NCBI GenBank assembly: GCA_964016885.1
Contig: OZ024742.1
Span: 284,890,001 to 284,954,000, forward strand
Reading direction: 5' to 3'
Length of the DNA stretch: 64,000 bases
From: Eledone cirrhosa
Taxonomy: Eukaryota
Position 1 is the stretch's first letter. Each line of letters starts with the position of its first letter. Positions 44,311 through 57,582 of this stretch are shown one piece after another. Below the pieces are notes generated by a model. That model had not been told where the DNA came from. It did no database searches and saw only the letters and a program-made list of their open reading frames with translations. A program made the translations under genes and the position numbers.

Positions 44311-47300
44311 AGTAATAATAATAGTAATAATAATAATATTAATAATAATAATAATAAGAAGAAGAAAAACAGAGAAAAACAAAAACAAAAAAAGAAACCC
44401 CAAAAACGTAAAGAAAATAAGAATGAAGAGAGAAGCAGGCGGACGGACAGAGAAGAGGGGGGGAAAAGTAAAACTTAAAAAACAAAAACTAAGTCAGACA
44501 TTCGAATACTACATTACAATGAAACTTATGCTTATTCATTTTTGGGGCCCTTTCTGCCCGTGTGTTTGTTTGTTTATGTGTGTCCGTATACAGCGTGGTG
44601 ATAATGCCACACAAGGGCCAAGTGGGATGGCGGATCCACAGATGGCTATGTAAACATACATTCGCCAATCCTCGATAAGAGTGTTTAAATATCGAACATA
44701 AACAGTTCGAATAACGGTGAAATGGAGACTAGAACGTCATGTGACAGACTCTCACCCAACAGGTGCCCCCTGGCTCAGCAGCAGGAACCTGACTGTCAAC
44801 CAAATACTGCTGATGTTGGAGGAAGAAGAAGAAGGAAAGGGGCCAGAACCAACTGGACGAAAGAATTGAATAGAACTGTTATGCAATGCTACCTGAAAAG
44901 TAACCCCAAGGAGAGGGGCTACAGGAGACGGATGCATAACATCTGGAACGAGATTGGTTTATTTAAATTAGATGAACAAAAATTGGCCGGGCAGGCTCGG
45001 GTAATAAGAACTAATGGGTGGATAAGCGAGCTGGAACTGGAGGAACTGAGCAGAGAGAATGGCTTGGAGATGGCGGGTGTAGTATGCCAGACAAGCGAGC
45101 CGGCAGGAAATGAAGGTGAGGAGGTCCTGAGAACGGAGGAACCACCCGAAGCAGACAATGATCTGAATACTGAGATAAATAATACCTGGAACAGAGATAC
45201 GGCCACTGAGGAGATGAATGCTGACGGGCTAGGACAAGATTCGGTTGACATCCTAAATTTAGTGGTAGATGAGTTGAACAATGATAGTGGGAGACCTATG
45301 AACCTAAGATTTGTAGACAGGAAAAAGTTAAAAGAAACAACAGCTAAGGTAAACAAAGTCATCCCATACCTTGAGGCGAGGAGTCTTCACCAGTGCAACA
45401 ATATCCTCAAAGCAACAGCAAATACGGTGAGGAAACTACTTGGTATAAAAGCGAGAGGAAACAACAGACAAGAAAGAGCAGAGCCGTGGTGGAAGAAGCG
45501 ACTGAGTGGGCAAATCGGGGAAATGAGAAATGACATAGGAAAGCTTGAGTCACTACTGAATGGGACACTAAAAAACATAGGCACTAAAAATAGACTGGAA
45601 ATAAAATACAAAACTAGGAGTAAAAAGCTAAATATTATCATAGAGGAATTGAAGCAACGCATTGTAGCAAAGAGTGCCAAAATCAGGCGATACGAGAACA
45701 GAGTCAGTCAGTATAAACAGAACCGCATGTTCGACAACAACCAGAAGATGCTGTTTGGACAGCTTGAGGGGAAAGAAAGAGGCAAGGACTTGATCCCTGG
45801 GGCGGAACAAGCTAAAACATTCTGGAGAGGAATATGGGAGCAGGATGTTAGACACAATGCCCAGGCAGGGTGGATTGAGACAGTACAGAGGGAGATCGGT
45901 GAGCAGGCACAGCAACAGACTGATTTGAGTATCACAGTTGAAACTCTTAAGGGGCAAGCCAAAAAACTAACCAACTGGAAATCACCAGGCCCAGATGGTG
46001 TGCAGGGGTATTGGATTAAACATTTAACATCCCTCCACCCGAAGCTGACGGCCATGTTCAATGACTGCTTGGTGTCGGGTGAGGTGCCAGAGTGGTTGAC
46101 AAAAGGTACCACAGTTCTGATAATGAAAGACCGAATCAAGGGTAATGATGTTACCAACTATAGACCTATCACATGTCTGCCCGTAATGTGGAAACTGTTG
46201 ACGAGCATTGTGTCTGAGGAAATCTACCATCACCTCCACACAAACAACTTGTTGCCGGACGAACAGAAAGGATGCCGAAAGAAGTCACGTGGTACAAAGG
46301 ACCAGTTGCTTATTGATAAGATGGTAATGGGGAATTGCAGGAGGAGACACACTGATCTTGCCATGGGATGGATAGACTACAGAAAGGCATTTGACATGGT
46401 GCCTCATTCCTGGATCACCAAAAGCCTGGAGATCTTCAGGGTGGCAGATAACATCAGACAGTTGCTGGGCAGGAGTATGGGGTCCTGGGAGACAGAGTTG
46501 ACATCAACTGGAGTATCCTTGGGAAGCGTGAAGATCAAGAGAGGTATCTTCCAGGGAGATAGCCTGTCCCCTCTGTTGTTTGTCCTTGCCCTGATGCCCT
46601 TGACCATTATGCTGCGAAAAGTGAGAGCAGGATACAAGTTGGGAAGGGGAGAGCTTACCATCAATCACCTCCTCTTCATGGACGATCTTAAGCTCTTCGG
46701 GAAAAGTGAGAAGGAGTTGGATGTGCTTGTTGACACTGTCCGTATTTTCAGCAGTGATATATGTATGCAGTTTGGTATTGGTAAATGTGGAGTCATTGTG
46801 ATGAGGAGGGGTAGGTTGAGCAGAAGTAACGGGATCCAGATACCAACAGGTGAGATGATAAAGGAAATTGACTCTGAGGAAGGATACAAGTATTTGGGCG
46901 TTCTGGAGGCTGATGGCATAAAGAACAAAAAAATGAAGGAATTGTTAAGAACTGAATACATTCGGAGAGTAAGGAGCGTATTGAAGTCACATCTGAACAG
47001 CAGAAATGCCATAAGCGCAGTAAATTCCCGAGCTGTGTCTATTATTAGGTACAGTGCGGGAATTCTGAGATGGAATGTTGCTGAACAAAAAGAAATGGAT
47101 AGGAAGACTAGGAAGCTATTGACTATCTACAACATGTTCCACAAGAGGAGTGATGTCGATAGACTCTACCTAAGGAGATCTGAGGGTGGAAGAGGTCTTA
47201 TCAGCATAGAGGACTGTGTTCAGATGGAGAAAAACAACCTATACAAATACGTGACCTATAGTAAGGAGCCAATGCTCAGAGCTGTACTGAAGGAGGGGAC

Positions 47301-48222
47301 AGTAGGCCAGGGGATACCCAAGGAGGAAATAACATCAAGGAGGAAGAGCAGCCTTAAGGGAAAATCCCTTCATAGTACCTTCTTTGAGAAAACTGAATTT
47401 AGAGATCCACAGACATGGAACTGGTTGAGAAGAGGAGACCTCAAAAAGGCTACAGAAGGAATGCTAATGGCTGCGCAGGAGCAGGCCCTCAAAACGAAGT
47501 GGTTGAAGCACCATATCTACAAGGAGGAGGCTAGCCCACTGTGCAGGATCTGTGGAGAGAGAGAGGAGACTGTGGCTCACATTGTGTCCGAGTGTAAACA
47601 CCTAGCCCAGACCCACTATAAGGGCTGGAGACACGATGTGATGGGCAGGGTGATCCACTGGCACCTGTGCAAAGTAAACAATCTACCACATTCTGAGAAA
47701 TGGTATGAGCATAGGCCAGAGGCGGTGATGGAGAACAGTCAGGTGAAGGTGCTGTGGGATTTTAGGATACAGACGGACAAAAAACTGGAACACAATAGAC
47801 CTGACCTGGTGGTTGTGGACAAAGAAAAAAGATCGTGCCTGATTGTGGATGTGGCCTGCCCGTTCGACACGAGAGTGCAAGAGAAGGAGAGGGAGAAAAT
47901 TAACCGATACCAGGACCTAAAGTGGGAGGTGAAAAGGATTTGGAACTGCCATGAAGTCAAAGTGATCCCGATTGTCATAGGCGCACTGGGGACTATCTCC
48001 AAAGGTTTCCAGGGATGGTTAAAGAAAATCGGCCCCTTCACGCTTTTTGGAACGCTTCAAAAGGCATGCTTGCTTGGAACGGCAAGAACCCTCCGATACG
48101 TCCTGAATATCTGAGGCTGCAGGTAGTGGCTTGATATTCAATCCAACGGACTTTCCAGTTAACCAACATCAATGACTGAGATTCAAGGAATAACAATAAT
48201 AATAATAATAATAATAATAATA
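44311..48222 (+). mobile_element. R4-clade (Dong-like) non-LTR retrotransposon inserted in (TAA)n
   Basis: Single long ORF, short 3' UTR, (TAA)n tail at 48191-48222 and a (TAA)n run upstream at about 44313-44357. Dong elements are known to target TAA repeats. The exact 5' end is uncertain. Confidence 0.9.
44722..48114 (+). CDS. R4/Dong ORF, 1130 aa: N-terminal DNA-binding region, reverse transcriptase, CCHC knuckle, restriction-like endonuclease
   Basis: SPGPDG, NYRPITCL, WIDYRKAFDMVPH, GIFQGDSLSPLLF, HLLFMDDLKL, DRLYLRRSEGGRGL, CRICGEREETVAHIVSEC, RHD, PDLVVVD...DVACP...EK. No stops. Confidence 0.95.
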   Translation: METRTSCDRLSPNRCPLAQQQEPDCQPNTADVGGRRRRKGARTNWTKELNRTVMQCYLKSNPKERGYRRRMHNIWNEIGLFKLDEQKLAGQARVIRTNGWISELELEELSRENGLEMAGVVCQTSEPAGNEGEEVLRTEEPPEADNDLNTEINNTWNRDTATEEMNADGLGQDSVDILNLVVDELNNDSGRPMNLRFVDRKKLKETTAKVNKVIPYLEARSLHQCNNILKATANTVRKLLGIKARGNNRQERAEPWWKKRLSGQIGEMRNDIGKLESLLNGTLKNIGTKNRLEIKYKTRSKKLNIIIEELKQRIVAKSAKIRRYENRVSQYKQNRMFDNNQKMLFGQLEGKERGKDLIPGAEQAKTFWRGIWEQDVRHNAQAGWIETVQREIGEQAQQQTDLSITVETLKGQAKKLTNWKSPGPDGVQGYWIKHLTSLHPKLTAMFNDCLVSGEVPEWLTKGTTVLIMKDRIKGNDVTNYRPITCLPVMWKLLTSIVSEEIYHHLHTNNLLPDEQKGCRKKSRGTKDQLLIDKMVMGNCRRRHTDLAMGWIDYRKAFDMVPHSWITKSLEIFRVADNIRQLLGRSMGSWETELTSTGVSLGSVKIKRGIFQGDSLSPLLFVLALMPLTIMLRKVRAGYKLGRGELTINHLLFMDDLKLFGKSEKELDVLVDTVRIFSSDICMQFGIGKCGVIVMRRGRLSRSNGIQIPTGEMIKEIDSEEGYKYLGVLEADGIKNKKMKELLRTEYIRRVRSVLKSHLNSRNAISAVNSRAVSIIRYSAGILRWNVAEQKEMDRKTRKLLTIYNMFHKRSDVDRLYLRRSEGGRGLISIEDCVQMEKNNLYKYVTYSKEPMLRAVLKEGTVGQGIPKEEITSRRKSSLKGKSLHSTFFEKTEFRDPQTWNWLRRGDLKKATEGMLMAAQEQALKTKWLKHHIYKEEASPLCRICGEREETVAHIVSECKHLAQTHYKGWRHDVMGRVIHWHLCKVNNLPHSEKWYEHRPEAVMENSQVKVLWDFRIQTDKKLEHNRPDLVVVDKEKRSCLIVDVACPFDTRVQEKEREKINRYQDLKWEVKRIWNCHEVKVIPIVIGALGTISKGFQGWLKKIGPFTLFGTLQKACLLGTARTLRYVLNI

Positions 48223-51710: not shown

Positions 51711-52010
51711 AGTGTGTACCCCCGGCATTCAAGGTCCTGGTTATTCGCGATTTTCACTTTGAACCTAACTGGAAACCACCGCATATTCGTGGGATCGTAA
51801 ATATCTTCCACGATTTTTTAACGCTAAATTATTAATAACAATATACCGAATTTTCCGGTCTATTGGACGCCCCTTCGCATAAATTTCATTTTATGTCATA
51901 TTTTGACGTTTATAGGCATTTTTTATGGACCACGTCCAATATTCGCGTTTTTTTTTACTTTTCGCGGGTGCTCTAGGAACGCGACCCCTGTGAATACCGG
52001 GGGACAACTG
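51711..52010. mobile_element. Tc1/mariner-superfamily (pogo/Tigger-like) MITE, degraded
   Basis: Right end GAATACCGGGGGACAACTG followed by TA; left end GTGTACCCCCGGCATTC is its imperfect inverse. Confidence 0.55.
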
Positions 52011-52041
<31 letters not shown>

Positions 52042-52454
52042 ATTTTTGGAGAGAAACGTATGTATGTTTAGTCAGCCATTTTGGGGAAATACTCGACTAT
52101 CTATTGCTCTAAACTGACGAAGCTCAAAACTGTAGAAACAATCTATTTAGATATTTAGACGTAGAAGAAATATGAAATATTAAATACCTTTCAATTCAAA
52201 TGTATAAATACAACATAGTCCATTACACGAAAAGAAAACAAAAATATAAGTATGTACACGTACATACATATATGCATACCGACGTACAGTAGTATGTATA
52301 TATATATATACATACATGCACACATATATATATGCATGTATGGATTCACCGAACATTTATTATAATGCTCGGTGTGTTTGTAAACAAACATCCCGTATTA
52401 AGCCGTAGTGTCTAGCAACCACCGTTGCTCGTTTGTTCAACACTGACAAAGGAA

Positions 52455-52495
52455 CGCTGTACTAGTTTCAAGCTTGTTAGCTATCGTCAGCAACG
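52455..52495 (-). ncRNA. Type I hammerhead ribozyme motif, left arm copy 1
   Basis: Minus strand CGTTG-CTGACGA-T-AGCT-AACA-AGCT-T-GAAA-CTAG-TA-CAGCG: stem I, CUGAnGA, stem II, GAAA, minimal palindromic stem III, GUA cleavage triplet. Stem I extends over 52435-52521. Confidence 0.85.
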
Positions 52496-52876
52496 TATAC
52501 CTTCCTGCCAGATTGTTGAACGTATATACTTACCTTATGCATATTAACGGCTGAGTAGCCCAATATGCATATCGAGTGGGTTAATCGGCCGGGTGCACCG
52601 AAAACGATAAACGGAAAAAATGAAACGATATTTCATTTCCCACTCTTAGTACGGCTGTTACTTAAATATAAGTATGTACACGTACATACATATATGCATA
52701 CCGACGTACAGTAGTATGTATATATATATATACATACATGCACACATATATATATGCACGTATGGATTCACCGAACATTTATTATAATGCTCGGTGTGTT
52801 TGTAAACAAACATCCCGTATTAAGCCGTAGTGTCTAGCAACCACCGTTGCTCGTTTGTTCAACACTGACAAAGGAA

Positions 52877-52917
52877 CGCTGTACTAGTTTCAAGCTTGTT
52901 AGCTATCGTCAGCAACG
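52877..52917 (-). ncRNA. Type I hammerhead ribozyme motif, left arm copy 2
   Basis: Core identical to copy 1. Confidence 0.85.
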
Positions 52918-53298
52918 TATACCTTCCTGCCAGATTGTTGAACGTATATACTTACCTTATGCATATTAACGGCTGAGTAGCCCAATATGCATATCGAGTG
53001 GGTTAATCGGCCGGGTGCACCGAAAACGATAAACGGAAAAAATGAAACGATATTTCATTTCCCACTCTTAGTACGGCTGTTACTTAAATATAAGTATGTA
53101 CACGTACATACATATATGCATACCGACGTACAGTAGTATGTATATATATATATACATACATGCACACATATATATATGCACGTATGGATTCACCGAACAT
53201 TTATTATAATGCTCGGTGTGTTTGTAAACAAACATCCCGTATTAAGCCGTAGTGTCTAGCAACCACCGTTGCTCGTTTGTTCAACACTGACAAAGGAA

Positions 53299-53339
53299 CG
53301 CTGTACTAGTTTCAAGCTTGTTAGCTATCGTCAGCAACG
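53299..53339 (-). ncRNA. Type I hammerhead ribozyme motif, left arm copy 3
   Basis: Core identical to copy 1. Confidence 0.85.
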
Positions 53340-53720
53340 TATACCTTCCTGCCAGATTGTTGAACGTATATACTTACCTTATGCATATTAACGGCTGAGT
53401 AGCCCAATATGCATATCGAGTGGGTTAATCGGCCGGGTGCACCGAAAACGATAAACGGAAAAAATGAAACGATATTTCATTTCCCACTCTTAGTACGGCT
53501 GTTACTTAAATATAAGTATGTACACGTACATACATATATGCATACCGACGTACAGTAGTATGTATATATATATATACATACATGCACACATATATATATG
53601 CACGTATGGATTCACCGAACATTTATTATAATGCTCGGTGTGTTTGTAAACAAACATCCCGTATTAAGCCGTAGTGTCTAGCAACCACCGTTGCTCGTTT
53701 GTTCAACACTGACAAAGGAA

Positions 53721-53761
53721 CGCTGTACTAGTTTCAAGCTTGTTAGCTATCGTCAGCAACG
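53721..53761 (-). ncRNA. Type I hammerhead ribozyme motif, left arm copy 4
   Basis: Core identical to copy 1. Confidence 0.85.
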
Positions 53762-54142
53762 TATACCTTCCTGCCAGATTGTTGAACGTATATACTTACC
53801 TTATGCATATTAACGGCTGAGTAGCCCAATATGCATATCGAGTGGGTTAATCGGCCGGGTGCACCGAAAACGATAAACGGAAAAAATGAAACGATATTTC
53901 ATTTCCCACTCTTAGTACGGCTGTTACTTAAATATAAGTATGTACACGTACATACATATATGCATACCGACGTACAGTAGTATGTATATATATATATACA
54001 TACATGCACACATATATATATGCACGTATGGATTCACCGAACATTTATTATAATGCTTGGTGTGTTTGTAAACAAACATCCCGTATTAAGCCGTAGTGTC
54101 TAGCAACCACCGTTGCTCGTTTGTTCAACACTGACAAAGGAA

Positions 54143-54183
54143 CGCTGTACTAGTTTCAAGCTTGTTAGCTATCGTCAGCAACG
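54143..54183 (-). ncRNA. Type I hammerhead ribozyme motif, left arm copy 5
   Basis: Core identical to copy 1. Confidence 0.85.
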
Positions 54184-54564
54184 TATACCTTCCTGCCAGA
54201 TTGTTGAACGTATATACTTACCTTATGCATATTAACGGCTGAGTAGCCCAATATGCATATCGAGTGGGTTAATCGGCCGGGTGCACCGAAAACGATAAAC
54301 GGAAAAAATGAAACGATATTTCATTTCCCACTCTTAGTACGGCTGTTACTTAAATATAAGTATGTACACGTACATACATATATGCATACCGACGTACAGT
54401 AGTATGTATATATATATATACATACATGCACACATATATATATGCACGTATGGATTCACCGAACATTTATTATAATGCTCGGTGTGTTTGTAAACAAACA
54501 TCCCGTATTAAACCGTAGTGTCTAGCAACCACCGTTGCTCGTTTGTTCAACACTGACAAAGGAA

Positions 54565-54605
54565 CGCTGTACTAGTTTCAAGCTTGTTAGCTATCGTCAG
54601 CAACG
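54565..54605 (-). ncRNA. Type I hammerhead ribozyme motif, left arm copy 6
   Basis: Core identical; one substitution at 54608 in the stem I bulge. Confidence 0.85.
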
Positions 54606-54986
54606 TAAACCTTCCTGCCAGATTGTTGAACGTATATACTTACCTTATGCATATTAACGGCTGAGTAGCCCAATATGCATATCGAGTGGGTTAATCGGCC
54701 GGGTGCACCGAAAACGATAAACGGAAAAAATGAAACGATATTTCATTTCCCACTCTTAGTACGGCTGTTACTTAAATATAAGTATGTACACGTACATACA
54801 TATATGCATACCGACGTACAGTAGTATGTATATATATATATACATACATGCACACATATATGTATGCACGTATGGATTCACCGAACATTTATTATAATGC
54901 TCGGTGTGTTTGTAAACAAACATCCCGTATTAAGCCGTAGTGTCTAGCAACCACCGTTGCTCGTTTGTTCAACACTGACAAAGGAA

Positions 54987-55027
54987 CGCTGTACTAGTTT
55001 CAAGCTTGTTAGCTATCGTCAGCAACG
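54987..55027 (-). ncRNA. Type I hammerhead ribozyme motif, left arm copy 7
   Basis: Core identical to copy 1. Confidence 0.85.
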
Positions 55028-55408
55028 TATACCTTCCTGCCAGATTGTTGAACGTATATACTTACCTTATGCATATTAACGGCTGAGTAGCCCAATATGC
55101 ATATCGAGTGGGTTAATCGGCCGGGTGCACCGAAAACGTTAAACGGAAAAAATGAAACGATATTTCATTTCCCACTCTTAGTACGGCTGTTAATTAAATA
55201 TAAGTATGTACACGTACATACATATATGCATACCGACGTACAGTAGTATGTATATATATATATACATACATGCAGACATATATATATGCACGTATGGATT
55301 CACCGAACATTTATTATAATGCTCGGTGTGTTTGTAAACAAACATCCCGTATTAAGCCGTAGTGTCTAGCAACCACCGTTGCTCGTTTGTTCAACACTGA
55401 CAAAGGAA

Positions 55409-55449
55409 CGCTGTACTAGTTTCAAGCTTGTTAGCTATCGTCAGCAACG
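55409..55449 (-). ncRNA. Type I hammerhead ribozyme motif, left arm copy 8
   Basis: Core identical to copy 1. Confidence 0.85.
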
Positions 55450-56007
55450 TATACCTTCCTGCCAGATTGTTGAACGTATATACTTACCTTATGCATATTA
55501 ACGGCTGAGTAGCCCAATATGCATATCGAGTGGGTTAATCGGCCGGGTGCACCGAAAACGATAAACGGAAAAAATGAAACGATATTTCATTTCCCACTCT
55601 TAGTACGGCTGTTACTTAAATATAAGTATGTACACGTACATACATATATGCATACCGACGTACAGTAGTATGTATATATATATATACATACATGCACACA
55701 TATATATATGCACGTATGGATTCACCGAACATTTATTATAATGCTCGGTGTGTTTGTAAACAAACATCCCGTATTAAGCCGTAGTGTCTAGCAACCACCG
55801 TTGCTCGTTTGTTCAACATACTTATACATACTTATATTTAAGTAACAGCCGTACTAAGAGTGGGAAATGAAATATCGTTTCATTTTTTCCGTTTATCGTT
55901 TTCGGTGCACCCGGCCGATTAACCCACTCGATATGCATATTGGGCTACTCAGCCGTTAATATGCATAAGGTAAGTATATACGTTCAACAATCTGGCAGGA
56001 AGGTATA

Positions 56008-56048
56008 CGTTGCTGACGATAGCTAACAAGCTTGAAACTAGTACAGCG
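56008..56048 (+). ncRNA. Type I hammerhead ribozyme motif, right arm copy 1
   Basis: CGTTGCTGACGATAGCTAACAAGCTTGAAACTAGTACAGCG on the plus strand; predicted cut between 56043 and 56044. Confidence 0.85.
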
Positions 56049-56429
56049 TTCCTTTGTCAGTGTTGAACAAACGAGCAACGGTGGTTGCTAGACACTACGG
56101 CTTAATACGGGATGTTTGTTTACAAACACACCGAGCATTATAATAAATGTTCGGTGAATCCATACGTGCATATATATATGTGTGCATGTATGTATATATA
56201 TATATACATACTACTGTACGTCGGTATGCATATATGTATGTACGTGTACATACTTATATTTAAGTAACAGCCGTACTAAGAGTGGGAAATGAAATATCGT
56301 TTCATTTTTTCCGTTTATCGTTTTCGGTGCACCTGGCCGATTAACCCACTCGATATGCATATTGGGCTACTCAGCCGTTAATATGCATAAGGTAAGTATA
56401 TACGTTCAACAATCTGGCAGGAAGGTATA

Positions 56430-56470
56430 CGTTGCTGACGATAGCTAACAAGCTTGAAACTAGTACAGCG
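56430..56470 (+). ncRNA. Type I hammerhead ribozyme motif, right arm copy 2
   Basis: Identical core. Confidence 0.85.
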
Positions 56471-56851
56471 TTCCTTTGTCAGTGTTGAACAAACGAGCAA
56501 CGGTGGTTGCTAGACACTACGGCTTAATACGGGATGTTTGTTTACAAACACACCGAGCATTATAATAAATGTTCGGTGAATCCATACGTGCATATATATA
56601 TGTGTGCATGTATGTATATATATATATACATACTACTGTACGTCGGTATGCATATATGTATGTACGTGTACATACTTATATTTAAGTAACAGCCGTACTA
56701 AGAGTGGGAAATGAAATATCGTTTCATTTTTTCCGTTTATCGTTTTCGGTGCACCCGGCCGATTAACCCACTCGATATGCATATTGGGCTACTCAGCCGT
56801 TAATATGCATAAGGTAAGTATATACGTTCAACAATCTGGCAGGAAGGTATA

Positions 56852-56892
56852 CGTTGCTGACGATAGCTAACAAGCTTGAAACTAGTACAGCG
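56852..56892 (+). ncRNA. Type I hammerhead ribozyme motif, right arm copy 3
   Basis: Identical core. Confidence 0.85.
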
Positions 56893-57582
56893 TTCCTTTG
56901 TCAGTGTTGAACAAACGAGCAACGGTGGTTGCTAGACACTACGGCTTAATACGGGATGTTTGTTTACAAACACACCGAGCATTATAATAAATGTTCGGTG
57001 AATCCATACGTGCATATATATATGTCTGCATGTATGTATATATATATATACATACTACTGTACGTCGGTATGCATATATGTATGTACGTGTACATACTTA
57101 TATTTAAGTAACAGCCGTACTAAGAGTGGGAAATGAAATATCGTTTCATTTTTTCCGTTTAAAACAAAAATAATTTCGCCTATTCATTTCTCTCTCTATC
57201 GCGCTCTCTCTCCCCCTCTCTCTCTCTCTCTAGCTCTCTCTTTTTCTCTCTACCTGGCAATGGAGACAAACTCTTCCATATGCTACTTGAAATAACAAGA
57301 TTATGCTTTATACTGATTAAGTACAAAAAAATAAAGAAACAAACTGTTTATACATACAGATGAAAAAAGAATATGAAATACTAATTAAATTTAAACTTAA
57401 ATGGTTAAACATAATGTTTTGGGTGAACTAAAAAAATTGAATAGAATTTTTTTTACTTCTTCAATTACTTCTCTCTTTTTCATGGAAACGTAAATAAAAC
57501 CATGACACACACATACGCCAACACATACATATACACTCATTCACCTATATATATATATATATAAAGAAAAACGATGAAGTTT

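Follow-up and report, generated by a model that had tools for sequence, protein, structure and literature searches.

The window analysed here is a 64-kb stretch of the 3.0-Gb Eledone cirrhosa genome (contig OZ024742.1, forward-strand positions 284,890,001 to 284,954,000), and it contains a mirror-image array, 4.9 kb in total and 11.7 units long, of a 422-bp sequence carrying a putative hammerhead ribozyme. The locus is a member of a young, genome-wide retrozyme family, and the mechanism behind it is very probably the two-site initiation of Penelope-like elements (PLEs). The whole explanation, in which the array arose as one retrozyme insertion by PLE-type two-site priming on a circular RNA monomer, appears moderately probable. 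The features of the locus are as follows, with positions counted from the first base of the window.

52235..52246, plus strand: left copy of the target-site duplication, identified from the sequence and a chance control, the last 5 nt of which (AAATA) also fit the unit.
52242..55818, minus strand: left arm, 8.48 units of 422 bp, whose outer limit is the upstream fixed site (unit position ~420).
52454..52496, minus strand: first of eight predicted type I hammerhead motifs in the left arm, recurring every 422 bp to 55408-55450.
55816..55835, unstranded: head-to-head junction, with a 3-nt overlap with the left arm, 6 extra bases and a 10-bp tandem duplication.
55825..57161, plus strand: right arm, 3.17 units, whose outer limit is the downstream fixed site (unit position 56/57).
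56007..56049, 56429-56471 and 56851-56893, plus strand: three predicted type I hammerhead motifs in the right arm.
57072, plus strand: one of the 12 occurrences of 389G, the locus-wide marker (A in the family), the left-arm copies of which lie at 52275 and every 422 bp.
57104..57161, plus strand: 'tail', spanning the interval from one fixed start site to the other, terminal on the right side only and with a predicted hairpin inside.
57161..57172, plus strand: right copy of the target-site duplication, the first base of which also fits the unit.

The 12-mer AAAACAAAAATA occurs as an exact direct repeat at the two outer ends of the array (52235-52246 and 57161-57172), as the initial annotation of this DNA had reported, and has no third occurrence on either strand of the window. 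The repeat overlaps the element by the 5-nt microhomology already noted at the left copy and, in addition, by 1 nt at the right copy, giving a formal duplication length of 6-12 bp, or of 12 bp if the shared bases had been primer ends. The earlier concern that an A-rich repeat of this kind might be a chance similarity was not borne out: when each local position, on either strand, was taken in turn as a mock right flank for the left end, none of 47,200 pairings had a repeat of at least 12 bp.

Between these copies the hammerhead strand points outward in both arms (eight minus-strand and three plus-strand copies), and the measured arm lengths agree with the previous estimates of about 8.5 and 3.2 units. 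The outer ends fall at unit positions 422 and 56 and the inner ends at 222 and 408, none of the four lying at the predicted ribozyme cut after unit position 204; the arms do start at different registers and away from the cut, as had been proposed. The 6 extra bases at the junction create its 10-bp tandem duplication, and 10 substitutions are present within the entire array. The putative hammerhead is predicted to consist of a 6-bp stem I with an extension, a 4-bp stem II and a 2-bp stem III with a palindromic loop, with cutting predicted after GUA in the motif, and its core and stems are readable in 11 copies. An Rfam scan of the unit returned no matches at the gathering score, and the predicted fold of the unit is far more stable than those of shuffled sequences (z = -10), which indicates structure only. 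A degenerate hammerhead-like motif was also observed on the plus strand at 52108-52155, about 90 bp to the left of the target duplication, with a core, a 6-bp stem I and a broken stem III; this is perhaps an old ribozyme element at the insertion site.

Genome-wide, 355 candidate places were found for the unit; 40 were scored, and those listed have 99-100% identity. Besides the window locus, 128 stretches were examined (29 from the scored list, 39 selected by the marker and 60 selected for non-(TA)n ends), and the first set of loci constitutes an unselected young set, separate from the marker- and end-selected stretches. Across all 129 stretches, 94 pairs of adjacent opposite arms were observed, 88 outward and 6 inward. 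The outer ends of the family cluster at two sites, one around unit position 420 and the other around 57, which are separated by 59 nt on the repeating unit, with 472 exact junction-pattern matches to the second site (near 57) and 1,662 to the first (near 420), the latter pattern being common to related subfamilies. Both flanks were in view in 83 pairs and both ends could be classified in 59, of which 50 had one end of each class; the 24 further pairs had an unclassified end, 10 of them stemming from a single duplicated segment. Within the unselected young set, one-of-each ends were present in 20 of 21 pairs (p = 2e-5). The permuted starts envisaged in the initial annotation are thus replaced by two fixed RNA sites, one of each being used per insertion. 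The inner ends are scattered, with 1/68 within 10 nt of the ribozyme cut against 3.4 expected, and they meet the priming site of the other arm in 4/34 cases against 2.5 expected by chance. The apparent stop of the right arm in the window where the left primer sat (408 compared with 422) was considered and rejected, being chance at the family level. In a separate observation, a single short two-armed insertion is repeated together with its flank on several contigs (L081-L085, L087-L090 and L096), and was therefore carried by a larger duplicated segment.

TA-like flanks are present on both sides in 41/50 one-of-each insertions, the window locus being an exception. For (TA)n flanks, a mixed repeat of at least 10 bp was found in 18/50 true pairs and in 329/2,450 mismatched pairs, and because mismatched pairs too give such repeats, duplications in these flanks are unreadable. 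Where neither flank is TA-like, 12-14-bp direct repeats occur in 4/5 one-of-each insertions, including the window locus. Duplication lengths of 10, 11 or 12 bp are each compatible with 11 of 12 readable sites, which were chosen by hand. A duplication of 10-12 bp, together with a strand layout in which the cDNA would occupy the top strand in the left arm and the bottom strand in the right arm, points to a staggered break with 3' overhangs, the ends of which acted as primers.

The same two-site rule is seen in a young autonomous PLE family of this genome (L189-L194), which has many intact reading frames, open for 1,277-1,281 codons, and both tandem and head-to-head copies. The ends of this family are 58 nt apart, with one of each in all nine readable two-armed copies and two more unresolved, and its repeat contains a hammerhead of the retrozyme's minimal type followed by a TATA run. 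Pfam and PDB searches with the PLE frame gave no direct match; look-alikes of the protein carry reverse transcriptase (RT), HTH_animal and GIY-YIG domains, and the nearest named relative is from Octopus vulgaris. Further, of the 55 retrozyme arms that lack a retrozyme partner, three (L097, L106 and L113) adjoin a PLE arm head-to-head, the PLE arms being from three different PLE families; two of these hybrids were recovered by a protein search of all 55 arms and the third by inspection of 17 of them. At a fourth locus, L160, a truncated PLE carries 76 nt of the unit fused at its 5' end. The one-of-each rule is kept by L106 and L113 but broken by L097, whose flanks differ from each other. These four hybrids suggest a loose choice of RNA by PLE enzymes.

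The writing enzyme was, with high probability, a Penelope-like reverse transcriptase/endonuclease. In the proposed sequence of events, this enzyme would cut the two target strands at positions about 10-12 bp from each other, and each 3' end would prime cDNA at one of the two fixed RNA sites 59 nt apart. The enzyme would then run 8.5 and 3.2 laps round one circular 422-nt RNA monomer, after which the two cDNA ends would be joined head-to-head via microhomology, with a short templated duplication added, and gap filling would yield the target duplication. The stagger, and a dimer using each site once, are what we infer from these footprints. The earlier proposal that both target strands were primed on the same type of RNA is supported, the template usually being shared, and its reading of the array as made largely in one retrotransposition event is likewise upheld.

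Evidence on the form of the template comes from unit position 389, which is G in 12/12 window units covering it, while the family has A in 1,921 and G in 71 (3.6%) of 1,992 matches, the 389G counts being from an exact-match search of one haplotype assembly. The marker is present in both arms of 11/12 two-armed loci carrying 389G, and the arms are concordant in 44/44 others, indicating that the two arms usually share a template type. No marked array of more than four tandem units was found elsewhere by that search, so if the window locus descended from one of the other marked arrays, read-through RNA from it would be too short to template an arm of 8.5 units. Had the marker arisen in the template, a linear multimer would require the change nine times and a circular monomer once, which favours the circle. 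Cut junctions across the family are seamless, 292/299 being identical and a single one altered in length; this speaks against jumps from one cut monomer to the next and fits both a circle and an uncut multimer. The rolling circle and the multimeric RNA had been offered as alternative sources; the evidence has shifted toward the circle, now rather probable.

Two matters concerning this position were considered separately. An interpretation of position 389 as an A.C mismatch proved wrong, since U342 is its pairing partner in the predicted fold. RNA editing is a possible origin of 389G (an A>G change on the RNA strand, within a long helix and on several haplotype backgrounds), although these loci were selected by the marker and this origin is hence not claimed. 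At loci L069, L070, L072, L076, L081 and L086, the long hairpin region has A>G changes of the RNA strand in common (unit positions 363, 389 and 399), which are either the mark of a sublineage or editing scars.

A two-sided PLE insertion could instead have been templated by an uncleaved linear multimer from a long source array, as one or two molecules, and this is regarded as unlikely. The anole PLE uses unprocessed RNA in vitro, ribozyme cleavage being unnecessary (PMC11167929), and arrays of 15-16 units are present in the family (L048 and L052); the seamless cut junctions also fit, and a variant shared by the two arms at unit position 343 could be a source polymorphism. However, the other 389G arrays are all of at most four tandem units in the exact-match search, an RNA-born marker would need to be repeated in nine or more units, and one molecule serving both arms predicts aligned variants, whereas the variants of the two arms do not align.

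Growth after insertion, in which unequal exchange or slippage, accompanied by conversion between units, later brought a short two-armed PLE-type insertion to 11.7 units, is improbable as an account of the window locus. This is the route favoured for tandem retrozymes by Li et al. 2026, a preprint that leans to unequal crossing-over (10.64898/2026.07.22.740005), and it would accommodate the 343 variant common to both arms and the identity of left units 2-4. Variants common to part of an array at three other loci, L051 (7/15 units, all in one arm), L049 and L103, further indicate that growth or conversion after insertion occurs in the family, and they weigh against the single-insertion explanation to that extent. 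Against later growth, 9/10 substitutions in the window array are at different sites or constitute the cross-arm pair, with none common to units within an arm. Near-invariant arrays moreover have many units in both arms, as at L052 (16.2 + 5.7 units, with one small insertion), and arm lengths within a locus correlate (Spearman 0.56, n = 34, partly due to the choice of loci).

Two further mechanisms, template jumping repeated along cleaved linear monomers and twin priming of the L1 type by a long interspersed nuclear element (LINE), are very improbable, and the fixed two-site ends have largely refuted them already. Template switches do occur, as in the L160 chimera and the junction duplication, but neither ends nor scars gather at the cut. 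Twin priming in L1 combines a poly(A) end with a variable internal site, the inversion point lying at that site. The retrozyme array is similar in that sense strands point outward inside one duplication, and an intact LINE-type frame lies inside the window; it differs in having both sites fixed and a scattered inversion point, with inner ends that miss the second priming site and without a poly(A) or simple tail. The twin-priming geometry assigned in the initial annotation is accordingly given up for two-site initiation. An assembly fold-back artefact combined with a chance A-rich repeat is barely conceivable: the two arms differ in length, stop at different family-wide sites and have private variants, the chance control gave 0/47,200, and the build recurs at 50 loci.

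Several further observations weigh against a single PLE-type insertion copied from one circular monomer. The one-of-each rule is broken in 9/59 pairs as well as in the hybrid L097, and the hybrids, together with the G/A locus L067, indicate that two arms can derive from different RNAs. The substitution at position 343 is present in one left and one right unit only (55275 and 57026; chance ~0.04), which one circle does not explain; the variant is not present in the other loci examined, and reflects either conversion between the arms or a mixed template. The G/G concordance could have been produced in a cell expressing solely the marked variant, and a long marked source array may be missing from the assembly. 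The putative hammerhead has a U.U at the base of stem II, and among Xenopus dimers 8/9 were without cleavage in vitro (10.64898/2026.07.22.740005). Comparison of the unit with one PLE repeat, from the one PLE family tested, gave a best match of 14/15 nt, a score reached by 67/200 shuffles and thus not significant. Regarding an empty allele or spanning reads, contigs of runs X1, X2, X4 and X5 leave 52010-52226 uncovered, and X3 and three restriction site-associated DNA sequencing (RAD-seq) runs contain no junction sequence.

Metazoan retrozymes lacking long terminal repeats (non-LTR) are described as dispersed tandem units of 150-450 bp, each with a type I hammerhead, low in GC and without a coding frame (PMC7229834; 10.64898/2026.07.22.740005). 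The present family resembles them in its dispersed, tandem, non-coding 422-bp unit of low GC with a type I hammerhead in each copy, in a duplication longer than 4 bp (6-12 bp here) and in the presence of PLEs in the genome. Circular RNA has been demonstrated in those systems, whereas for the array here it is a prediction. Term searches of the same two papers gave no mention of arrays that are inverted or two-armed, of fixed ends or of a tail. That PLEs copy RNA circles and so mobilise animal retrozymes is a proposal not yet backed by direct evidence (PMC7229834).

Among PLEs with an endonuclease (EN+), head-to-head arms with an extension at one end (PMC3846280, PMC8557442) and target duplications of 8-10 bp (PMC3846280) have been published, and the anole protein, modelled as a dimer, cleaves and extends both strands and starts at two internal RNA sites, the spacing of which equals the tail (PMC11167929). 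The retrozyme array shares with these the inverted head-to-head build, the one-end extension, a duplication of 8-12 bp, (TA)n targets, cutting and extension of both strands, and two internal start sites. It differs in that its unit is a non-coding 422 nt copied for many laps per arm, with a tail of 59 nt in the family compared with 30-40 nt in PLEs, and in the strict pairing of the two sites, as the anole enzyme had no strand difference in vitro (PMC11167929). A 2013 paper explained head-to-head PLE arms by self-priming on antisense RNA (PMC3846280). MRC1 and other non-autonomous Chlamys PLEs, which form PLE-driven multicopy head-to-tail insertions (PMC8557442), are also comparable as non-autonomous, PLE-driven multicopy insertions; those elements resemble the 3' end of their partner and are mostly without hammerheads, whereas the unit has no such match to the PLE repeat tested.

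How PLEs form tandem and inverted insertions has been stated to be unresolved (PMC8557442), and the retrozyme family provides countable footprints of the process: two start sites each used once, a stagger that is readable outside (TA)n, all-unit markers and PLE hybrids. To these the window locus, the longest marked array, adds a duplication that is clean and readable and a marker present in all its units. The component parts are known or have been proposed; what was not found in the literature searched is a counted one-of-each rule, a readable stagger, a marker argument for the circle and the hybrids, and no description of a two-armed retrozyme build was present in the titles and abstract openings covered, subscription papers and supplements being outside that search. 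For an in vitro test, the family also supplies an RNA, a pair of start sites and, from the same genome, an intact candidate enzyme, and it offers a route to satellite arrays without unequal crossing-over. A more extensive picture, for which the chances fall a little short of even, is that a dimeric PLE enzyme binds a single circular ribozyme RNA at two points separated by 59 nt and copies it as a double rolling circle, starting from either end of a staggered 10-12-bp cut, with the 11.7-unit palindromic satellite born from one molecule, perhaps A-to-I edited. The two-site rule would then explain PLE head-to-head arms and the one-sided tail generally, and the dimer could load two RNAs.

Two other features of the window were observed. 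Positions 1-35000 are occupied by an array of 24-bp repeats in which one plus-strand frame is almost open (one stop; 10,526 codons; rich in Thr, Ile and Asn, e.g. ITTNTTT) and one minus-strand frame is fully open, making the array a candidate for either a giant mucin-like exon or a satellite. The intact LINE-type frame lies at 44689-48111 on the plus strand and comprises 1,141 codons, with an RT domain (RVT_1, E 6e-23) and C-terminal Cys/His and nuclease-like motifs.

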